DNA of 64,000 nucleotides from Phenylobacterium sp. (GCF_016124325.1 NZ_WGNY01000026.1:4204-68203), one strand, 5' to 3'. Counted from the stretch's first letter, positions 55,728-62,323 are shown. Translations and numbers: made by a program. Notes: generated by a model from the sequence alone, not told the origin.

Positions 55728-55782
55728 GAGCAGGCTCCTGGCGGTTCGGAAGCAATCCTGCGCCCGACGCCGCCGAAGCGAC

Positions 55783-55796
55783 TTGCGGTTGATCAA
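55783..55796. promoter_or_regulatory. FixK/FNR-type box TTGCGGTTGATCAA
   Basis: Matches TTG(A/C)-N6-(T/G)CAA. Lies 56-69 nt upstream of the SDR ATG (55727) and overlaps the HdeD stop codon. Confidence 0.4.
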
Positions 55797-56368
55797 TCCG
55801 CCAGCGGATTTTCCGAGCGCCGTGTGAACCCCAGGGCCACGAGCGCCGCGCCGGTGGTGGCCAGGGCGGCGCAGAGCAGCAGGGACACCGCCTCGGACGT
55901 CCGCTCGGGCAGGCCGGCGGCGAGCAGGCCGGCCGCCGCCAGGCTGGTGAGGGCCGAAGCCAGCATCCAGCGCCAGACCGCCAGGGGCCGCAGGTGCAGG
56001 GCCGCGGCGAGCTGGAAGGCCCCGTCCACCACGAACGCGGCGGCCAGCAGCAGGGCCGCGGCGAGCGCGCCCGCCGTCGGATGGAAGGTCAGCCACGCGC
56101 CGAGCCCCGCCGCGGCGAGCGCCGCCGCCGCTCCGGCCGCCCGGAGCGGGCCGGTGAACATCAGGAGCGCGAACCCCAGCATCAGCGCGCCCGCCAGCCA
56201 GAGCGCCCAGCCGCTGGCCGCGCCGATCAGCATCGACGCCTTGCCCGGAGAGAACGCCACCGCGAGCGCCAGGCCCAGAAGCGCCAGCCCCACGATCCCC
56301 GCGGGCCGCCTGCGCGAAGCATGCAGGTTGGCGGGTCGTGGCGCCGCCGCTGCGCTGACCGCGCTCAC
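55793..56368 (-). CDS. HdeD/DUF308 family membrane protein
   Basis: About 191 aa from GTG 56368, which overlaps the AI-2E stop (GTGA). Six Gly/Ala-rich helices typical of DUF308 repeats. Confidence 0.65.
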   Translation of the reverse strand: MSAVSAAAAPRPANLHASRRRPAGIVGLALLGLALAVAFSPGKASMLIGAASGWALWLAGALMLGFALLMFTGPLRAAGAAAALAAAGLGAWLTFHPTAGALAAALLLAAAFVVDGAFQLAAALHLRPLAVWRWMLASALTSLAAAGLLAAGLPERTSEAVSLLLCAALATTGAALVALGFTRRSENPLAD

Positions 56369-57423
56369 GGCGCAGGCTCCTGCGTATCGCCCAGCACGTC
56401 CTCGACATACAGCATCCGGACGACGACGTAGGCCACCACGGCCAGCGGCGTGGCGAAGAGCACGCCGAGAGGCCCGAGAAGCACGCCCATGGCCAGCACG
56501 GCGAACAGGGTCACGGCCATCGGCAGCTCGACCATCTGGCGCAGCACCAGCGGGGTGACGACGTTGGCCTCGAACTGGGAAGCCCCGAGGTAGACGACGC
56601 CCGTCCAGGCCAGGGTCTGGAAATCCTGTCCGGCGGCGACGATGAGGCCCGGCACGGTCGCGGCCATCGGGCCGACCACGGGCACGAACTGGCCGAGCCC
56701 CGCCACCACGCCGAGGGCGAAGGGCGATGGAACGCCCGCCAGCCACAGCCCGAGGCCCACCGTGACGCCGACTAGGACCATCGAGATGAGCTGGCCGACC
56801 AGCCAGCGGTTCAGCGCCTTGCCGCAGGCGTCGAAGACCTGGGCCATGCGCGGTCGCCGCCCCACCGGGACCAGCCGGAGCAGGCCGCCGACATAGGTCT
56901 GCGGGTGGAAGGCCAGATAGAGCCCGGCGAACAGCACGATCACCGCCGCCGTCGCCGCGCTGGCCCACTGGCCGATCAGTTGCGAGCCCAGGGTGACGAT
57001 CATGCCGTCGGGCTGGCGGAGACGCTGAAGGTCGTCGAGCACGTAGGCGCCGACGCGCGAGGCCGAAAGCCGCTCCTGCAGGGCCGCCCAGGTGCGTGGC
57101 AGGAGCTCGCCGAGCGCCGCCATCTGCTGGCCGATCTGCTGGCCGAACAGCCACAGCGTTCCGGCGATCGCGACGCCCATGACCACGACCGCCACCGCGA
57201 GCGCCGGCTGCCGGCCCATGCGGGCGCGCTGGACGAGCGGTTCGGCCAGGGCGTGCAGCAGGATGGCCACGAGCACCGCGCCAAACGCCAGCAGGATGAC
57301 GTCGGCGAGACGCCAGATCAGGAAGCCCAGGGTCGCGGCCACGATCAGGGCCATGGCCGCGGGCAGGCGCGCCCGCCGCGCCTGCGGCGGTCCCGGCGTC
57401 AGTGGGACATCAGGACGGGGCAA
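56365..57423 (-). CDS. AI-2E family transporter (PerM/YhhT-like)
   Basis: 352 aa (TTG at 57423; alternative ATG at 57354). Polytopic, with family-like blocks (FVPVVGP, GVLLGPLGVLFATPLAVV). Confidence 0.8.
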   Translation of the reverse strand: MPRPDVPLTPGPPQARRARLPAAMALIVAATLGFLIWRLADVILLAFGAVLVAILLHALAEPLVQRARMGRQPALAVAVVVMGVAIAGTLWLFGQQIGQQMAALGELLPRTWAALQERLSASRVGAYVLDDLQRLRQPDGMIVTLGSQLIGQWASAATAAVIVLFAGLYLAFHPQTYVGGLLRLVPVGRRPRMAQVFDACGKALNRWLVGQLISMVLVGVTVGLGLWLAGVPSPFALGVVAGLGQFVPVVGPMAATVPGLIVAAGQDFQTLAWTGVVYLGASQFEANVVTPLVLRQMVELPMAVTLFAVLAMGVLLGPLGVLFATPLAVVAYVVVRMLYVEDVLGDTQEPAP

Positions 57424-58247
57424 GGCGGAGCCTCCAGGACCCCGGCGGTCGCGCCGCCGAGAACGAACTCCCGCAGGCGCGCGTGGCCGAAGCCGCCCAT
57501 GACCAGGAGCCCGACACCGGCCTCCACGACGTAGTTGCGGATCGTGCGCGAGATCGGCCGGCCGTCGGCCGAGCGCGCGTCGACCGTCGCGCTGACGCCG
57601 TGCGCGGCGAGGTGGCGGAGCAGATCGTCGGCGACGGCCGGTCCCACCTCCGGCTTCTCGTCGGTCACGACCAGGATGCGGACGCTCCCGGCGCGGACCA
57701 GCAGCGGCAGGGCGTCGGCCACGGCGCGCGCGGCGCGCGCCCCGCCGTCCCAGGCGATCGCGATGACGTCGAAACCGTCACCCGGCGTGATCTCCACCTC
57801 CTCCGGATAGACCATCACCGGACGGCCCGAGCCGAACAGCACGGCCTCAGCCAGCTCGCGATCGTCGAGCACGGCCGGCCCCAGCGGGAGGAGACAGAGG
57901 TCGCGCGTATGGGCCGCGGCGCACAGCGCCGAGCCTTCCTCGTACATGCGCGCCGTGAGCGTGCGGACCTCGATCGGAACGCCGGCCTCGTCGGCGGCGA
58001 CGCGCGCGCACCCCTCGATGTGCCGCGCCGCGGCGACGCTGCGCCCTTCCTCTTCCTCCACCAGGCGCTCGATGTGGATCAAGGCGTCGGCGAGGCGGCT
58101 GCGCAGCGAGGGTATGTCGACGCGAACCGGCGCCATACAGACGCCGCCGCCCAACCGGCGCGCCAAGGCGACGCCGCTCCGCACCGCCTTGTCCGGCGTG
58201 GCGTCGGGGTAGGTGAGCGCCCCCAGCAGCAAGTCGCGATAGGTCAT
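57399..58247 (-). CDS. tandem-domain universal stress protein
   Basis: 282 aa from ATG 58247. Two USP halves. C-terminal VMGGFGHARLREFVLGGATAGVLEAPPCPVLMSH. Confidence 0.8.
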   Translation of the reverse strand: MTYRDLLLGALTYPDATPDKAVRSGVALARRLGGGVCMAPVRVDIPSLRSRLADALIHIERLVEEEEGRSVAAARHIEGCARVAADEAGVPIEVRTLTARMYEEGSALCAAAHTRDLCLLPLGPAVLDDRELAEAVLFGSGRPVMVYPEEVEITPGDGFDVIAIAWDGGARAARAVADALPLLVRAGSVRILVVTDEKPEVGPAVADDLLRHLAAHGVSATVDARSADGRPISRTIRNYVVEAGVGLLVMGGFGHARLREFVLGGATAGVLEAPPCPVLMSH

Positions 58248-58285
58248 GCGCCGCTTATGTCCGGGCTCGCCGACACGCTCAACCG

Positions 58286-59161
58286 TCAATGGCTCAGCAG
58301 CACGCAGCAGGGCGGGCGATGAATGAGCTCGTCCGTCACCCCGCCGAACGCCCACTCGGCGACACGGTTGTGGCCGTAGGCGCCGCAGGCGATCAGGTCC
58401 GCGCCGTTGGCGCCGGCGATCTTGGCCAGCTCCTGGGCGACGCCTTCCGGCGCGCTCGTCGAGACGTGAGCTCGCGCCGCGACGCCGTGGCGCTGCAGGC
58501 TGGCGGCGACGTCCTCGGCCTGGAAGCGGGCTTCCTCGATGGCGTCGTCGTCGCAGACCGCGGCGACGATCACGTCCTTGGCGCGCGCCAGGAACGGCAT
58601 GGCGTCGGCCACGGCCCGCCGGGCTTCACGCGTGTCCTTCCAGGCGACGACCACCGCGCGGCCCTTCGGGGCGGCGCCGCCTTCGGGCACGATGAGCACC
58701 GGGCGGCCGGCGTGCATGACGAGCTCCGCCGGATCCGCGCAGAGCGACGGGCCCAGCCGGCTGCGCGGGCTGGCGACGATGAGATCGGCCGCGCGCGCGA
58801 CGCTCGCCATGGCCCGGGCCGGAAAGGCCTGCACCGAACGCCACTCGACGTCGGCGCCGGCGGCGTCGCGCCGGAAGGCGGCCTCGGCCGCCTTGAGGTC
58901 GGCGTTGATCTGCTCCTGAACGAGCGAGACCCACTCGCCGGCCGCGTAGCCAAAGAACGGATCGACCGTCGGCGTCGGATCGAAGGTCTCGGCGCCCAGG
59001 CCGATCAGCCGCGCGCCAAGGTCACGTGCCAGCACGGCGGCGGCGTGGACGCGGGTCGTCGCGCGGGCGGCGGGCTCGGCATGGACCAGCAGACTGGCGA
59101 TGGCGGGGCCGGACGCGGCGGCCTTGGTCTGGAGCGCAACCTGATCTTTCGTCGAGGTCAT
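58286..59161 (-). CDS. tandem-domain universal stress protein (paralog)
   Basis: 291 aa from ATG 59161 with an AAGGAGG RBS. C-terminal ACGAYGHNRVAEWAFGGVTDELIHRPPCCVLLSH. Confidence 0.8.
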   Translation of the reverse strand: MTSTKDQVALQTKAAASGPAIASLLVHAEPAARATTRVHAAAVLARDLGARLIGLGAETFDPTPTVDPFFGYAAGEWVSLVQEQINADLKAAEAAFRRDAAGADVEWRSVQAFPARAMASVARAADLIVASPRSRLGPSLCADPAELVMHAGRPVLIVPEGGAAPKGRAVVVAWKDTREARRAVADAMPFLARAKDVIVAAVCDDDAIEEARFQAEDVAASLQRHGVAARAHVSTSAPEGVAQELAKIAGANGADLIACGAYGHNRVAEWAFGGVTDELIHRPPCCVLLSH

Positions 59162-59386
59162 CTCAGCCTCCTTGCGACATGTCGGATATTGTAAGCGCAA
59201 TGTGGGCGGCCGGCGCGCGTTCGCAGCCGGAAACCTGAGCAGAGGGGTACGCTCGACCGCGGCGACCGGGAACTTGGGGCGGCGCCCTAAGTAGCTATAC
59301 GGAGGTTTTGCAGCCGGCGCGTTTCTGGTCTGGATCGCGGTCTGCGGGGCCCCGCACGCATGGCGCCTCGGCATAGGAGAATCGGC

Positions 59387-59836
59387 ATGGAACTGACGGG
59401 AACCACCTGGATCGTGGCGGCGGACGGCGCCGAGGCGCGGTTCTTCGCCGAGCCCATGCGCGCCGGCCCGGTCCACGAGCTGACCGACTCCCGCATGCGG
59501 GCCGGGCATGAAGACCACGCCCCATCCCACCAGCACGGCACGGTCCACGAGCGCGGAGGCGTCGGACGGCACGGCGCCGGCGACGAGACCTCGCCCAAGC
59601 AGGAGACCGAGGACCGGTTCCTCAGGCGGGTGGCCGATCGCCTGGCCAAGGCGGCCCAGCATGGCGACTACGAACGCCTGGTGGTGATGGCGCCGCCGCA
59701 CGCCCTCGGCGTCCTGCGCCAGGCCCTGCCCCCGGCCGTCGCCGCGAAACTCGAGGGATCCGATCCGCACGAGCGGGTGAAGGAGACCGCCGACGACATC
59801 CGCCGCCACCTGCACGACGTCCGCGCGCGAGCCTGA
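59387..59836 (+). CDS. host-attachment family protein (Host_attach / COG5622-like)
   Basis: ATG at 59387 with an AGGAGA RBS. 149 aa. TWIVAADGAEARFF near the N-terminus, a central His/Gly-rich loop and LVVMAPPHALGVLRQAL match my recollection of this family. Confidence 0.7.
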   Translation: MELTGTTWIVAADGAEARFFAEPMRAGPVHELTDSRMRAGHEDHAPSHQHGTVHERGGVGRHGAGDETSPKQETEDRFLRRVADRLAKAAQHGDYERLVVMAPPHALGVLRQALPPAVAAKLEGSDPHERVKETADDIRRHLHDVRARA

Positions 59837-59840
59837 CGGG

Positions 59841-61418
59841 GTGACATTCGACCTGACGTTCCACGGCGCGGCCGGCTGCGTAACGGGATCATGCGCCCAG
59901 CTGCGGACCGACCGGGGCAACGTGCTCGTGGACTGCGGCATGTTCCAGGGCTCCAAGACCCTGAAGGCCCTCAACTACGAGCGGTTCCCCTTCGATCCGG
60001 TCGAAATAGACGCCGTCCTTCTGACCCACGCCCACATCGACCATTCCGGGCTGCTGCCCAAGCTGATGCGCGCGGGATTCAAGGGGCCGATCCACGCCAC
60101 CGCCGGCACGGCCGACCTCTGCGCCGTCATGCTGCCCGACGCGGGCGACATCCAGGAAAGCGAGGTCCGCCAGCTCAACCGCCGCAACGAGCGCCGCGGC
60201 CGCCCGCCGGTGGAGCCGATCTACACCGCGCGCGACGCCGAGCGCACGATCGAGCTCTTCAAGACCGCCAAGCTGGGCCGGGAAGTCCGCGTGGCGCCGG
60301 GCGTCACGGCGGTCTACTGGGAGGCTGGCCACATCCTCGGATCGGCCTCGATCGAGGTGCGCGTCGAGGCCGGAGATAAGCCGGTGAGCCTGCTGTTCTC
60401 GGGCGACCTCGGCCCGGGGGGACGCGAGTTCCAGCCCGATCCCGAGGGGCCGTCGGGCGTCGACCACCTGATCATGGAGTCGACCTACGGCGCCCGCGCG
60501 CGGACGCTGATCGACCCGGCGACGCGGCGGCGGATGCTGGCGCAGGAGTTGCGCGACGCCCACCGCGCCGGCGGCCCTCTGCTGATCCCGGCCTTCGCGG
60601 TGGAGCGCTCGCAGGAGCTGCTGGCCGACATCCAGATCCTGATGGACGAGGGCGAGGTCCCGCAGACCGACATCTTCCTCGACTCGCCGCTGGCCATCGA
60701 GGCCACCGAGGTGTTCCGCCGGCGGGGCTGGAGCAAGGCGCGCGGGGCCAATCCGTTCGAGCGGCTGCGCTCGGCCGGCCGCCTCCAGTTCCTGCGCGAG
60801 CCCTGGGAAAGCGACCGCCTGGAGCGGCTCTCGGGCTGGCACATCATCATGGCGGCCAGCGGCATGTGCGACGCGGGCCGGGTGCGGAAGCACCTCAAGC
60901 GGCTGCTCTGGCGGCGCGACGCGACCGTGCTGCTGACCGGCTTCCAGGCCGCCGGCACGCTGGGCCGCCTGCTGTCGGACGGCGCCAGCATGGTGCGAAT
61001 CCAGGGCGACCACATCTCGGTCCGCGCGCGCATCCGCTCGCTCGACGTCTATTCCGCCCACGCCGACGCCGCCGGCCTCGAGGCCTGGGCGAAGGCGCGC
61101 GCGCCTGTGTCGGGCAAGCTGTTCCTGGTGCATGGAGAGCCCGAGGGGCAGGAGGCGATGCGCGCCCGGCTGGCGGGCGACGGCTTCGCCGCCGAGCAGA
61201 TCATCATCCCGTCCCTGGACGACCGCTTCGCGCTCGATCACGACACGGTGGTGGCGCAGGCCGGCGCGAGCCGCCTCAAGCCCGGCGCCGCGGCCCGGAC
61301 CGACTGGCACAACGCCCGCGCCCAACTGCTGCTCGACCTCGAAGCCAGGCTCGACGCCCTGCCGAGCGACGCCGAGCGGGAAGCCCTGCTCGCGCGCCTG
61401 TCGAAGTCGCTGGCCTAG
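59841..61418 (+). CDS. beta-CASP MBL-fold metallo-hydrolase (RNA-metabolising type)
   Basis: The GTG at 59841 lies 4 nt after the preceding stop. Blocks MTFDLTFHGAAGCVTGSC, LLTHAHIDHSG (HxHxDH), a beta-CASP region and YSAHAD near the C-terminal third. 525 aa. Confidence 0.85.
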   Translation: MTFDLTFHGAAGCVTGSCAQLRTDRGNVLVDCGMFQGSKTLKALNYERFPFDPVEIDAVLLTHAHIDHSGLLPKLMRAGFKGPIHATAGTADLCAVMLPDAGDIQESEVRQLNRRNERRGRPPVEPIYTARDAERTIELFKTAKLGREVRVAPGVTAVYWEAGHILGSASIEVRVEAGDKPVSLLFSGDLGPGGREFQPDPEGPSGVDHLIMESTYGARARTLIDPATRRRMLAQELRDAHRAGGPLLIPAFAVERSQELLADIQILMDEGEVPQTDIFLDSPLAIEATEVFRRRGWSKARGANPFERLRSAGRLQFLREPWESDRLERLSGWHIIMAASGMCDAGRVRKHLKRLLWRRDATVLLTGFQAAGTLGRLLSDGASMVRIQGDHISVRARIRSLDVYSAHADAAGLEAWAKARAPVSGKLFLVHGEPEGQEAMRARLAGDGFAAEQIIIPSLDDRFALDHDTVVAQAGASRLKPGAAARTDWHNARAQLLLDLEARLDALPSDAEREALLARLSKSLA

Positions 61419-61454
61419 GTTGAAGACCCGCTCGATAGCTTGAAGACATTTCAG

Positions 61455-61489
61455 GCCGTCATGGCCCGGCTTGCCCGGGCCATGACGGC
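61455..61489 (+). terminator. perfect 15-bp-stem hairpin downstream of the beta-CASP gene
   Basis: GCCGTCATGGCCCGG-CTTGC-CCGGGCCATGACGGC. No U-tract follows. Confidence 0.4.
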
Positions 61490-61549
61490 GAGGGTCGGTC
61501 GATCAAGCCATCAACCCGGACGCTGGCGCCCAGGTCCCGGACATGCGAC

Positions 61550-61575
61550 GGGGCGCGGACCTAAGTCCGCGCCCC
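61550..61575 (-). terminator. perfect 11-bp-stem hairpin downstream of ompW
   Basis: GGGGCGCGGAC-CTAA-GTCCGCGCCCC, 23 nt from the ompW stop. No U-tract follows. Confidence 0.4.
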
Positions 61576-61597
61576 GCGTAACGCCTCCCAGCGCGTT

Positions 61598-62245
61598 CTA
61601 GAAGCGGTAGCCGAAGCCCGCCGAGACCACCCACGGATCCAGGTGGACCTTGGACTTGATCCCGTTGGTCTTGTCGACGGCGTCGGTCTTGAAGGCGACC
61701 TTCTTCACGTCGAGGTTCAGGCTCCAGGGCCCGCCGGTGGCGATGTCGACGCCCGCCTGGGCGGCCAGGCCGAACCCGTCGTCGAGCTTCAGGTTGAACC
61801 CGTTCTTGTCCGAGCCGCTGTAGAACAGCATGTAGTTCACGCCGGCGCCCACGTAGGGGCTGATCCGCTGATCCGGCGCGAAGTGATACTGCAGCGAGAC
61901 GATCGGCGGCAGGACCCAGGTTTCCTTGACCTTGATGTCGGTCCCCGGACCCTTGGCCTTGACGGTGTGCTTGGTCGTCCCGGCGATCACCTCGACCGCC
62001 ACGTGATCAGTGAAGAAGTAGGTCAGGCCCAGGGTCGGCATGACGTCGTAGTTCACGTCGGCGCGCAGCCCGGTGGACGCGCCGGCCAGGGTGGTGATCG
62101 GGTCGGTGCCGCTCGGCGCGACCTGGGTGATGCGCAGGTCGACGACCTTGGTCCCGGCGGCCTTCGGCTTGAAATCCTGCGCCTGGGCGACCCCGGCGAC
62201 AGCCAGCGCGGCCATCAGCGGCAGCGCCATCATCTTGGTCTTCAT
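61598..62245 (-). CDS. ompW: OmpW family outer-membrane protein
   Basis: 215 aa from ATG 62245 (RBS AAGGGGA). Signal peptide MKTKMMALPLMAALAVAGVAQA. Blocks YFFTDHVAVE and PYVGAGVNY, with C-terminal GFGYRF. Confidence 0.9.
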   Translation of the reverse strand: MKTKMMALPLMAALAVAGVAQAQDFKPKAAGTKVVDLRITQVAPSGTDPITTLAGASTGLRADVNYDVMPTLGLTYFFTDHVAVEVIAGTTKHTVKAKGPGTDIKVKETWVLPPIVSLQYHFAPDQRISPYVGAGVNYMLFYSGSDKNGFNLKLDDGFGLAAQAGVDIATGGPWSLNLDVKKVAFKTDAVDKTNGIKSKVHLDPWVVSAGFGYRF

Positions 62246-62309: not shown

Positions 62310-62323
62310 TTGATCTGCCGCAA
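62310..62323. promoter_or_regulatory. FixK/FNR-type box TTGATCTGCCGCAA upstream of ompW
   Basis: Matches TTG(A/C)-N6-(T/G)CAA. Lies 65-78 nt upstream of the ompW ATG. Confidence 0.45.

Follow-up and report, generated by a model that had tools for sequence, protein, structure and literature searches.

Why should a gene for a small Host_attach-family protein be tied so closely to a gene for a β-CASP nuclease, and what might the two products do? The question is raised by positions 59387-61418 of a 64,000-nucleotide stretch of DNA from Phenylobacterium sp. (GCF_016124325.1, NZ_WGNY01000026.1:4204-68203), here called the window, where the second gene follows the first after only 4 nt. An earlier reading, made without database searches (the sequence-only reading), saw in the pair a candidate RNA and ribosome quality-control module induced by stress or hypoxia. 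Our own proposal, which we hold tentatively and at slightly less than an even chance, is that two members of a low-oxygen/dormancy gene pool have been fused into one operon in this lineage, and that their products work side by side on the translation apparatus.

The two genes and their products

The Host_attach open reading frame (ORF) extends on the plus strand from the ATG at 59387 to the TGA at 59834-59836 (59387-59836, 149 aa), and the sequence itself shows a Shine-Dalgarno element on the same strand, AGGAG at 59375-59379, with 7 nt between it and the ATG. The GGAG of this element is kept in all three aligned relatives; an alternative ATG at 59360 was rejected, as the stretch that holds it is deleted in the relative L063 and that start is hence not kept. 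The nuclease ORF (59841-61418, plus strand, 525 aa) begins with the GTG at 59841, the earliest possible start downstream of an in-frame TGA at 59778-59780. The junction (59834-59843, plus strand) consists of the TGA stop, the 4 nt CGGG and the GTG start. Scans for sigma-70 promoters and intrinsic terminators over 58900-61800, the interval between the two genes included, gave zero matches. Both genes are under purifying selection in comparisons with the two nearest relatives, with ratios of nonsynonymous to synonymous substitution (dN/dS) of 0.14-0.34 for Host_attach and 0.08-0.23 for the nuclease. Coordinates and Pfam matches agree with the layout first described, and the arrangement suits the co-translation that was claimed for it: the TGA-4 nt-GTG junction would provide co-transcription and translational coupling in this lineage, and the junction type recurs in relatives. 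In the literature searched we found no description of such a coupled pair, nor a function for one, as the sequence-only reading had supposed.

The first gene encodes a Host_attach/baeRF family 12 protein. The Host_attach Pfam model matches residues 7-142 with its positions 1-138 (3.9e-33; 115.4 bits against a gathering score of 26.7), and on the same protein it overlaps the model for the “bacterial archaeo-eukaryotic release factor family 12”, baeRF_family12 (2.9e-28; 99.6 bits against 27.7). A search of the PDB with the amino acid sequence gave zero matches. An AlphaFold2 (AF2) model made with 26 homologues as input (pLDDT 76.7) shows two N-terminal strands, a low-confidence loop at residues 43-66, a long helix and then strand/helix repeats. 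When this model was compared with the PDB by Foldseek, Balon came first (Msmeg1130, 8v9j_z, E 8e-6, TMq 0.58), with Rv2629 among the matches, followed by aRF1 (4af1, E 3.5e-5) and by eRF1 and Pelota chains (E 3e-4 to 1e-2), with a Foldseek probability of ~1.0. By this comparison the protein has the RNase-H-like middle-domain fold of the aeRF1 superfamily. The NCBIfam matches are in accord: residues 52-142 align to positions 144-235, the middle domain, of the 357-position Rv2629 model, with weak scores against the Balon equivalogs (24.2 bits against a cut-off of 320 for Rv2629 and 16 bits against 480 for MSMEG_1130), and we count these matches in favour of our proposal.

The 149 residues make up one domain. 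eRF1, Pelota and Balon have in addition an N-terminal domain (mRNA/decoding centre) and a C-terminal one (GTPase-binding), both of which define the function of those factors and are absent here. Judging from the AF2 model, the gene product is the middle domain only of the aeRF1/Pelota/Balon superfamily. The eRF1/Pelota fold that the sequence-only reading proposed was thus right for that domain, on the evidence of the baeRF12 Pfam match and of the Foldseek matches to Balon, aRF1, eRF1 and Pelota, but it does not extend to the N and C domains or to a GGQ motif. The loop at residues 43-66 (59513-59584, plus strand; pLDDT <50) lies at the position of the GGQ/lasso loop and carries a basic, family-wide motif, D-x-P-G-R ... 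G-x-G-R-H (here TVHERGGVGRHGAG); neither GGQ nor a conserved Gln is found in the Host_attach loop in the family alignments. The family is large and uniform: clustered at 50% identity it has 6,357 representatives (E <=1e-3), and nearly all of the 150 best matches have a length of ~145-150 aa.

Two bodies of published work bear on such a protein. The middle domain of Balon binds the peptidyl-transferase centre (PTC) through a lasso loop at the GGQ position (PMC10901736). The window protein resembles Balon of Psychrobacter and its mycobacterial forms (Rv2629/Msmeg1130) in fold, in lacking GGQ, in having a loop at that position and in gene context, since Balon genes lie in stress or hypoxia operons beside HdeD- and USP-type genes (PMC10901736). 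It differs in that Balon has three domains (~360 aa), with an N domain at the decoding centre and a C domain that contacts EF-Tu. The second comparison is with the baeRF-1 clade of Burroughs and Aravind (2019; PF10116, PF18856), to which the match is full-length and which shares a stand-alone RF-PH domain: three baeRF-1 families keep the RF core domain alone and are predicted to be non-catalytic binders of the A site or large subunit (PMC6514570). In that work the linkage reported is to HPF, and β-CASP/metallo-β-lactamase (MBL) nucleases, the linked genes here, go unmentioned (PMC6514570). Because that study offers predictions only and the Balon study left out every homologue <300 aa (PMC10901736), the Host_attach family is experimentally untouched, although the claim of an eRF1-like fold holds.

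The second gene (59841-61418, plus strand) encodes a β-CASP ribonuclease of the TTHA0252/CPSF73 type according to Pfam, the PDB search, AF2 and Foldseek. Pfam finds the Beta-Casp (2.6e-27, 96 bits), Lactamase_B (8.5e-15) and RMMBL (1e-11; 45 bits against 21.6) domains. The closest protein of solved structure in the PDB sequence search is TTHA0252 of Thermus thermophilus (E 1.3e-56; 33% identity across 438 residues), followed by archaeal CPSF1, Cas14, CPSF73 and IntS11, and the AF2 model (pLDDT 81.9, pTM 0.83) matches TTHA0252 in Foldseek with E 2e-32 and TMt 0.86. MBL motifs 1-4 and β-CASP motifs A, B and C are all present. Motif 2, HxHxDH, lies at 60027-60044 (plus strand) in the segment LLTHAHIDHSG and supplies H63, H65, D67 and H68; further catalytic or motif residues are H164, D189, E213 (motif A), H407 (motif B) and H431 (motif C, the RNA-type His). 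All nine residues are invariant across 30 nuclease orthologues. In the alignment H63/H65/D67/H68 pair with H59/H61/D63/H64 of TTHA0252, S405/H407 with S378/H380, and H431 with H400; the mutant series of the TTHA0252 crystal structures covers H61, S378, H380 and H400.

All the catalytic motifs of TTHA0252 are kept, but the window nuclease differs from it by a 14-residue insert around residues 108-121 and by a C-terminal extension of ~75 residues (~450-525; 61188-61415, plus strand) that is predicted to form two strands and a helical hairpin. In the extension D488-W-H-N491 (DWHN) and R493 are invariant. It is also found in Azospirillum, Sinorhizobium and Mesorhizobium plasmid homologues (99% query coverage). 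TTHA0252 itself, which Thermus can do without, is a 5'-3' exoribonuclease and probably an endonuclease as well; ~200 mRNAs change when it is lost (PMC4229858), and it has no known link to hypoxia.

From its sequence, the window nuclease belongs to the RNA-type β-CASP branch with an intact active site and is a predicted RNase, in agreement with the first assignment of the gene to the β-CASP RNA enzymes. RNase J, aCPSF1/FttA and Cas14 have the β-CASP catalytic core in common with it but are set apart by scores and by their C-terminal or KH domains. RNase J identity was rejected, as the PDB sequence matches at E <=1e-3 include no chain of RNase J; an RNase J model is absent from the 25 NCBIfam families listed for the protein, and it has no RNase J C-terminal domain. 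A short-form relative from another locus, L029, scores 19 bits against 400 on the RNase J model TIGR00649. Identity with Cas14 of type VII CRISPR systems or with aCPSF1 was likewise rejected (318.6 bits against 800, and 216.1 against 580.2), and the N terminus opens directly with the MBL domain, in contrast to aCPSF1 with its KH domains. PADLOC, a search for anti-phage defence genes, gave no match for the nuclease or for the Host_attach protein.

It might be argued that the MBL-fold protein is no RNase in vivo, being instead an SNM1/Artemis-type DNA nuclease or a β-lactamase. A review files BCAM0300, a gene of the Burkholderia lxa locus to which we return below, under antibiotic resistance as a β-lactamase (PMC12071387), and the window protein has weak NCBIfam matches to B3 β-lactamases and to a ligase-associated exonuclease. 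The β-lactamase matches, however, span the first ~90 residues only and are far under the cut-offs, the protein has Beta-CASP and RMMBL domains with the motif C histidine, and its closest solved relatives (TTHA0252, aCPSF1, CPSF73, IntS11 and Cas14) are all RNA enzymes. We consider this alternative very improbable indeed.

Extent and history of the pairing

The relatives sampled comprise 26 Phenylobacterium-type loci, namely 24 one-genome-per-species contigs and two single-protein look-ups, with stored flanks of up to 6 kb. The whole arrangement and its 4-nt junction are kept in L059, at 89% identity for Host_attach and 95% for the nuclease, and in L063, at 68% and 81%; the 4-nt junction is identical in L059-L063. 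More widely, 12 of the 26 loci have an orthologous nuclease (68-77% identity) downstream of Host_attach on the same strand. Seven of these (L007, L012, L016, L018, L019, L020 and L021) are essentially contiguous, with ATGA overlaps in L007 and L019, a GTGA overlap in L018, gaps of 5-7 nt in L012 and L016, and gaps of 32-35 nt with GGAGA in L020 and L021. A ~102-aa HTH_3 (Xre-type) ORF is inserted in three others (L004, L025 and L033), breaking the tight junction, and in the last two the nuclease lies 2.4 kb from Host_attach. Coupling junctions recur in 10 relatives, and overlaps or gaps of 4-7 nt persist among lineages in which the Host_attach proteins are only 41-57% identical.

The nuclease was not found within the stored flank at the remaining 14 loci, one of which is truncated 1.2 kb downstream. 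At least two of these 14 genomes have it at a distance of 6.5 kb or 18 kb, within an island of the same type. Because the adjacent and non-adjacent states interleave when the Host_attach proteins are placed on a neighbour-joining tree, the linkage must have been broken or made on several occasions.

Outside the genus the pairing fades. Only 2 of 28 genome loci have a nuclease near Host_attach, in each case a 40-43%-identical short form within 0-2.5 kb on the opposite strand: L029, from a gammaproteobacterial metagenome-assembled genome (MAG) with a universal stress protein (USP) gene nearby and the two genes convergent, and L040, from a Nannocystaceae MAG. A metagenome scan, which used an alignment of a distant Host_attach subgroup (A4), found the nuclease at 0 of 80 loci, which together span 411 kb and of which 31 reach 6 kb or more. 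Beyond the genus Host_attach has varied neighbours, among them CBS proteins, α/β hydrolases and methyltransferases. A plasmid collection held 4 Host_attach matches at E <=1e-6, too few for statistics. Broad conservation of the pair is therefore rejected, given 2 of 28 outside genomes and 0 of 80 metagenomic loci. The sequence-only reading had named a lack of conserved neighbourhood as grounds for giving up its module, and half of this has come about: the genes are kept as neighbours in part of one genus, but there is no family-wide module. The pairing is confined to Phenylobacterium-like Caulobacteraceae and has evidently been selected for coupling in part of the genus.

Other Host_attach genes have other settings. 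In the distant subgroup (L064-L143) the gene lies in a housekeeping block with IMPDH, RsmB (16S), RlmE/FtsJ (23S) and Ppx/GppA, each of which accounts for 9-15 of 123 neighbouring ORFs, though many of these loci may share one clade. Further members occur in L153 (P. zucineum HLK1 plasmid), L154 (S. fredii plasmid) and L002, that is, on conjugative plasmids and in other islands, where the neighbours are Hsp20 (three copies), FtsH, pta-ack, a BON-domain protein and PolX. The Burkholderia lxa locus has this same pool of genes, which appears to be mobile.

Several relatives also have a gene, not present in the window, for a helical protein of ~102 aa (MSKSLT...RKKSA) whose C-terminal end forms a membrane anchor: L001 6553-6861, L018 8075-8383, L057 7645-7953 and L058 7677-7982. 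Its similar architecture brings to mind ElaB/YqjD, which are ribosome-associated and tail-anchored, but the matches are non-significant (E 0.16-0.5) and that identity was rejected. The gene stands directly downstream of Host_attach where the nuclease is absent, and directly downstream of the nuclease where it is present. The nuclease resembles an insertable cassette, because without it Host_attach precedes the same ~102-aa gene.

The record of conservation bears most directly on the idea that the pair is a surveillance machine, in which Host_attach would sense stalled or idle ribosomes and recruit or activate the RNase, for example through the DWHN hairpin, as a counterpart of Pelota-linked no-go decay. 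The survival of tight junctions where Host_attach is only 41-57% identical speaks for it, as do the extra conserved C-terminal module of the nuclease and the closeness of the two genes in the unrelated taxa of L029 and L040. On the other hand, the genes of L029 are convergent and hence not co-transcribed, adjacency is lost in 14 of 26 same-genus species and absent in the wider family, and the C-terminal extension is kept equally well in non-adjacent orthologues (P0248, P0315, P0317 and those of rhizobial plasmids). The protein itself lacks the N domain that would sense an empty mRNA channel and the C domain that would bind a GTPase. Pelota/Dom34 is like it in central-domain fold and in having no catalytic Gln, and offers the concept of an A-site factor joined to RNA cleavage, but needs an Sm-like N domain, a C domain, a GTPase of the Hbs1/aEF1α type and ABCE1; an ORF and Pfam survey found no GTPase or ABCE1-like gene in the window operon. 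The no-go-decay nucleases Cue2 and NONU-1 are not known to be β-CASP enzymes. The Pelota analogy is weakened, because the N and C domains are missing, adjacency has repeatedly been lost and the C-terminal module is kept without a Host_attach neighbour. The Pelota-style quality control first suggested for the locus is weakly supported: the fold of the middle domain agrees with it, but the N and C domains, GGQ and family-wide adjacency do not. We regard a direct machine as improbable.

Low-oxygen regulation and the company of the nuclease

If not in a shared machine, the common ground of the two genes may be sought in their regulation. A box of the FNR/FixK type, TTGATC-N4-GTCA(C/G), precedes Host_attach at a strongly conserved position in most of the related loci: its distance from the start is 63-70 nt in 21 of the 26, and one more locus has it at -89 (22 of 26). 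In many of the box-bearing loci a Crp/FNR-family gene lies between USP and Host_attach. Nuclease genes that stand apart carry a box of their own in L055 (5904), L056 and L057 (5953), and the L058 operon that ends in the nuclease gene also has boxes (3477/3508). Because boxes are present whether the genes are adjacent or apart, both belong to one FNR-type regulon within the genus.

The window as a whole is rich in such boxes, with 15 found at <=2 mismatches against 3.9 expected in the 64 kb. Those near the pair lie at 55783-55796 (2 mismatches, 53-66 nt upstream of the start of a short-chain dehydrogenase/reductase (SDR) gene at 55730), at 58069 (inside a USP coding region), and at 62310-62323 and 63080 (2 mismatches each). 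The FixK boxes that the sequence-only reading saw in this block are thus borne out in that they flank the locus, but there is none in the region between Host_attach and USP. No box of the TTGAT-N4-ATCAA type with <=2 mismatches lies within 400 nt upstream of Host_attach in the window, L059 or L063, and their absence from this lineage suggests a promoter swap.

The place of the box is occupied by a conserved intergenic block (59272-59305) shared by the window, L059 and L063, which is composed of the near-palindrome ACTTGGGGCGGCGCCCTAAGT and of AGCTATACGGAGG. The near-palindrome spans 21 bp and has 9 of 10 palindromic pairs when scored by eye; a repeat search with a seed of 6 did not recover it. 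The block has no sigma-70 consensus match and no known motif assigned to it. It is a candidate promoter/operator common to the divergent USP and Host_attach operons. A riboswitch or sRNA reading of the block is unsupported, because Rfam over 58900-61800 gave a single, chance-level match (E 0.41), to a hairpin at 61549-61576.

The genes around the pair fit the same setting. A divergent stress operon on the minus strand (55808-59164), recognized by Pfam and with the same order in L059 and L063, holds two USP genes (58286-59164 and 57399-58247), an AI-2E transporter gene (56365-57423) and a DUF308/HdeD-like gene (55808-56365), so that the USP-USP-AI-2E-HdeD operon described earlier agrees with Pfam, in which HdeD is DUF308. 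Beyond it Pfam identifies the SDR gene, a flavodoxin-like reductase gene and an alcohol dehydrogenase (ADH) gene. Downstream, a convergent ompW gene (61598-62245, minus strand; Pfam) has the FNR-type box 62310-62323 (2 mismatches) 65-78 nt before its ATG. Two perfect GC-rich hairpins without a T-run lie between: one with a 15-bp stem after the nuclease gene (61455-61489), which is a candidate terminator or REP-like element although the terminator scan gave no match, and one with a 12-bp stem nearer to ompW (61549-61576). The content of lxa-like islands (USPs, ADH, MBL RNase, flavodoxin-like protein, AI-2E, DUF308 and OmpW) is thus present, with boxes on the flanking operons, and this composition recurs from locus to locus.

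Published expression data place both families at low oxygen. In Bradyrhizobium diazoefficiens bll5315, a direct FixK2 target, and bll4645 encode Host attachment proteins that are induced by microoxia at both transcript and protein level, and bll4645 adjoins genes for a USP and a CBS protein (PMC6515984). In Burkholderia cenocepacia the lxa gene BCAM0300, annotated as “metal-dependent RNase” and as “metallo-beta-lactamase superfamily protein”, is induced 30-fold at low oxygen, and the motif of the lxa locus is an Anr/Fnr-like TGA-N6-TCA. A B. pyrrocinia replicon has a homologue of the window nuclease (37% identity) together with Zn-ADH, three USPs, a response regulator, Fnr, cytochrome c and SulP, and these neighbour products match the lxa genes BCAM0281-0300 as tabulated; by analogy with this syntenic homologue BCAM0300 is probably homologous to the window nuclease. 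The lxa locus draws on the gene pool to which the window island belongs, with several USPs, an MBL-fold RNase, ADH, Crp/Anr regulators, BON, Hsp20 and an FNR-like motif, and the FixK2 regulon has its FixK2-dependent, microoxia-induced host attachment proteins in common with it. Neither system is reported to have a Host_attach-RNase operon, and the window operon differs further in having no box. The stress or hypoxia induction first proposed accordingly has the context in relatives and the literature behind it, but not the operon's own promoter.

What else travels with the nuclease was followed in 16 contexts of its short or long form. The short form (~462 aa) is very widespread and conserved: its members in Gamma-, Beta- and Alphaproteobacteria and in Nitrospira share ~60% identity. 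A thymidine-phosphorylase (TP)-family gene adjoins the nuclease in five of the 16, from P. soli, Azospirillum, Variovorax, Sphingobium and Agrobacterium (L058 3563-7596; L149, L156, L157 and L158), and in all of these except Azospirillum a phosphoribosyl pyrophosphate (PRPP)-synthetase-like gene is in the same cluster. USPs are near the nuclease in at least seven of the 16, and in Mesorhizobium phosphoketolase and acetate kinase genes lie directly downstream of it. The TP-family gene is the operon partner met most often in Alpha- and Betaproteobacteria. The commonest partners of the nuclease elsewhere are thus not baeRF genes, which counts against the baeRF-nuclease module of the sequence-only reading. 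The contexts point to low-oxygen RNA and nucleotide turnover at least as strongly as to ribosome surveillance, and hint, by analogy, at an anoxic route from RNA through nucleoside monophosphates (NMPs) and pentose to ATP. The analogy for a bacterial role of the TP-family and PRPP-synthetase-like enzymes is the archaeal AMP phosphorylase pathway. On an Azospirillum plasmid (L149 6792-9548) the long-form nuclease is followed by HlyD and by a “ribosome-associated ATPase/putative transporter RbbA”.

These contexts lend themselves to an account in which the two genes are accidental neighbours in a shuffled island, the nuclease serving anoxic RNA and nucleotide catabolism with salvage of pentose and energy (RNase to NMPs, then TP-family and PRPP-synthetase-like enzymes, then phosphoketolase and acetate kinase) and Host_attach having an unrelated stress role. 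The TP-family genes, with or without PRPP-synthetase-like ones, occur beside the nuclease in both Alpha- and Betaproteobacteria, and together with the Mesorhizobium genes, the USPs and the cassette-like behaviour of the nuclease they argue for it. The pathway role is nonetheless drawn by analogy to archaea, coupling junctions have been kept across considerable divergence, and both genes keep the same type of box when apart and are co-regulated at minimum. We judge mere neighbourhood, and with it the proposed catabolic route, to be possible but unlikely.

A BCAM0308-family gene lies ~50 nt upstream of a short-form nuclease gene in a betaproteobacterium and in Emcibacter (L147 4448-4951 and L148 4445-4948; 201-203 bits against a cut-off of 100 on NCBIfam lxa_BCAM0308). 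Its product has a Zn-ribbon and matches Pfam NMD3 with E 4e-5, slightly below the gathering score, and this may be a second arrangement of the nuclease with a small partner. Since NMD3 binds the large subunit, the faint, sub-threshold similarity in these two lineages is a further point for a direct surveillance machine. In its fullest form the machine would have Host_attach dock on the idle or stalled large subunit and gate the RNase through the DWHN hairpin, a kind of anoxic ribosome triage in which some ribosomes are protected and the rest, along with their mRNAs, pass into nucleotide and pentose catabolism for ATP; we think this scenario improbable as well. It would be equally improbable that other proteobacteria use the BCAM0308-family protein as the corresponding, possibly large-subunit-binding, adaptor.

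What the pair may do

Our proposal of a lineage-specific operon fusion can now be set out step by step. The source pool would be the proteobacterial regulons of the FNR/FixK/Anr type and their lxa-like islands, with USPs, AI-2E, DUF308, ADH, flavodoxin-like reductase and OmpW. The first gene would contribute a stand-alone form of the domain that contacts the peptidyl-transferase centre in aeRF1, Pelota and Balon, with a basic loop in place of GGQ. Most likely it acts as a non-catalytic “mini-Balon” on the A site and PTC of the large subunit, and would silence or protect ribosomes when oxygen or energy fails. The second gene would contribute a TTHA0252-type 5'->3' exo- and endo-RNase that most likely clears mRNA and surplus RNA in that state. 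Coupled at the junction in transcription and translation, the two would act in parallel, not as an obligate complex. The analysis shows the gene identities, the fold, the catalytic motifs, the recurrence of the junction, the boxes in relatives and the purifying selection, while ribosome binding, RNase activity, hypoxic induction in this organism and the way the work is divided are inferred.

Several points weigh against this proposal. Ribosome binding is on experimental record for no single-domain Host_attach protein, and the domains through which Balon, eRF1 and Pelota mostly contact the ribosome are missing from the window protein. ATGA overlaps are frequent for complex subunits, and parallel action does not need them. 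Hypoxic induction of the window operon is unproven, because the operon has no FixK/FNR box at its own promoter (none with <=2-3 mismatches in the 222-bp Host_attach/USP intergenic region) and a search of the 64-kb window with tblastn found no Crp/FNR regulator gene. Finally, the sample of nuclease contexts, at 16 loci, is small.

The same division of labour could also be turned around, making the pair antagonistic: the RNase would degrade unprotected ribosomes or rRNA, Host_attach would shield a reserve pool, and coupled translation would set the ratio of the two. Hibernation factors are said to guard the active centres of ribosomes from nucleases (PMC10901736; bioRxiv 10.1101/2025.11.04.686544), a coupled junction fixes stoichiometry, and the nuclease is linked to nucleotide-salvage genes. 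Yet half of the related species hold the two genes in separate transcription units, loss of TTHA0252 shifts mRNA levels with no role in rRNA decay reported, and the scheme is entirely inferential. We find it quite improbable.

For the biology of these bacteria, then, the locus gives experimenters a modest lead on how ribosomes and RNA are managed in hypoxia, and is no surprising new system. Each gene alone is an ordinary member of a known, uncharacterised family, and the hypoxia link was already visible in published transcriptomes. What the literature searched does not contain is the operonic, coupled pairing, a variation on the theme of a baeRF/Balon-type factor in a stress operon; as it is restricted to a single genus, it does not amount to a new, widespread system. 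The families it joins are nevertheless of consequence. The single-domain Host_attach/baeRF12 proteins form a very large family that the Balon work set aside (PMC10901736), and the MBL-fold “metal-dependent RNases”, strongly induced by hypoxia in Burkholderia lxa-type loci, are of uncharacterised function. Were the gating scenario true, bacteria would have in this pair their own, domain-minimised version of Pelota-coupled RNA decay. The coupled operon offers a handy genetic entry, in a Caulobacter-like organism, to the question of whether mini-Balon proteins bind ribosomes, and it opens a second question, how RNA turnover and ribosome preservation are coordinated under oxygen and energy starvation, a state relevant to persistence.

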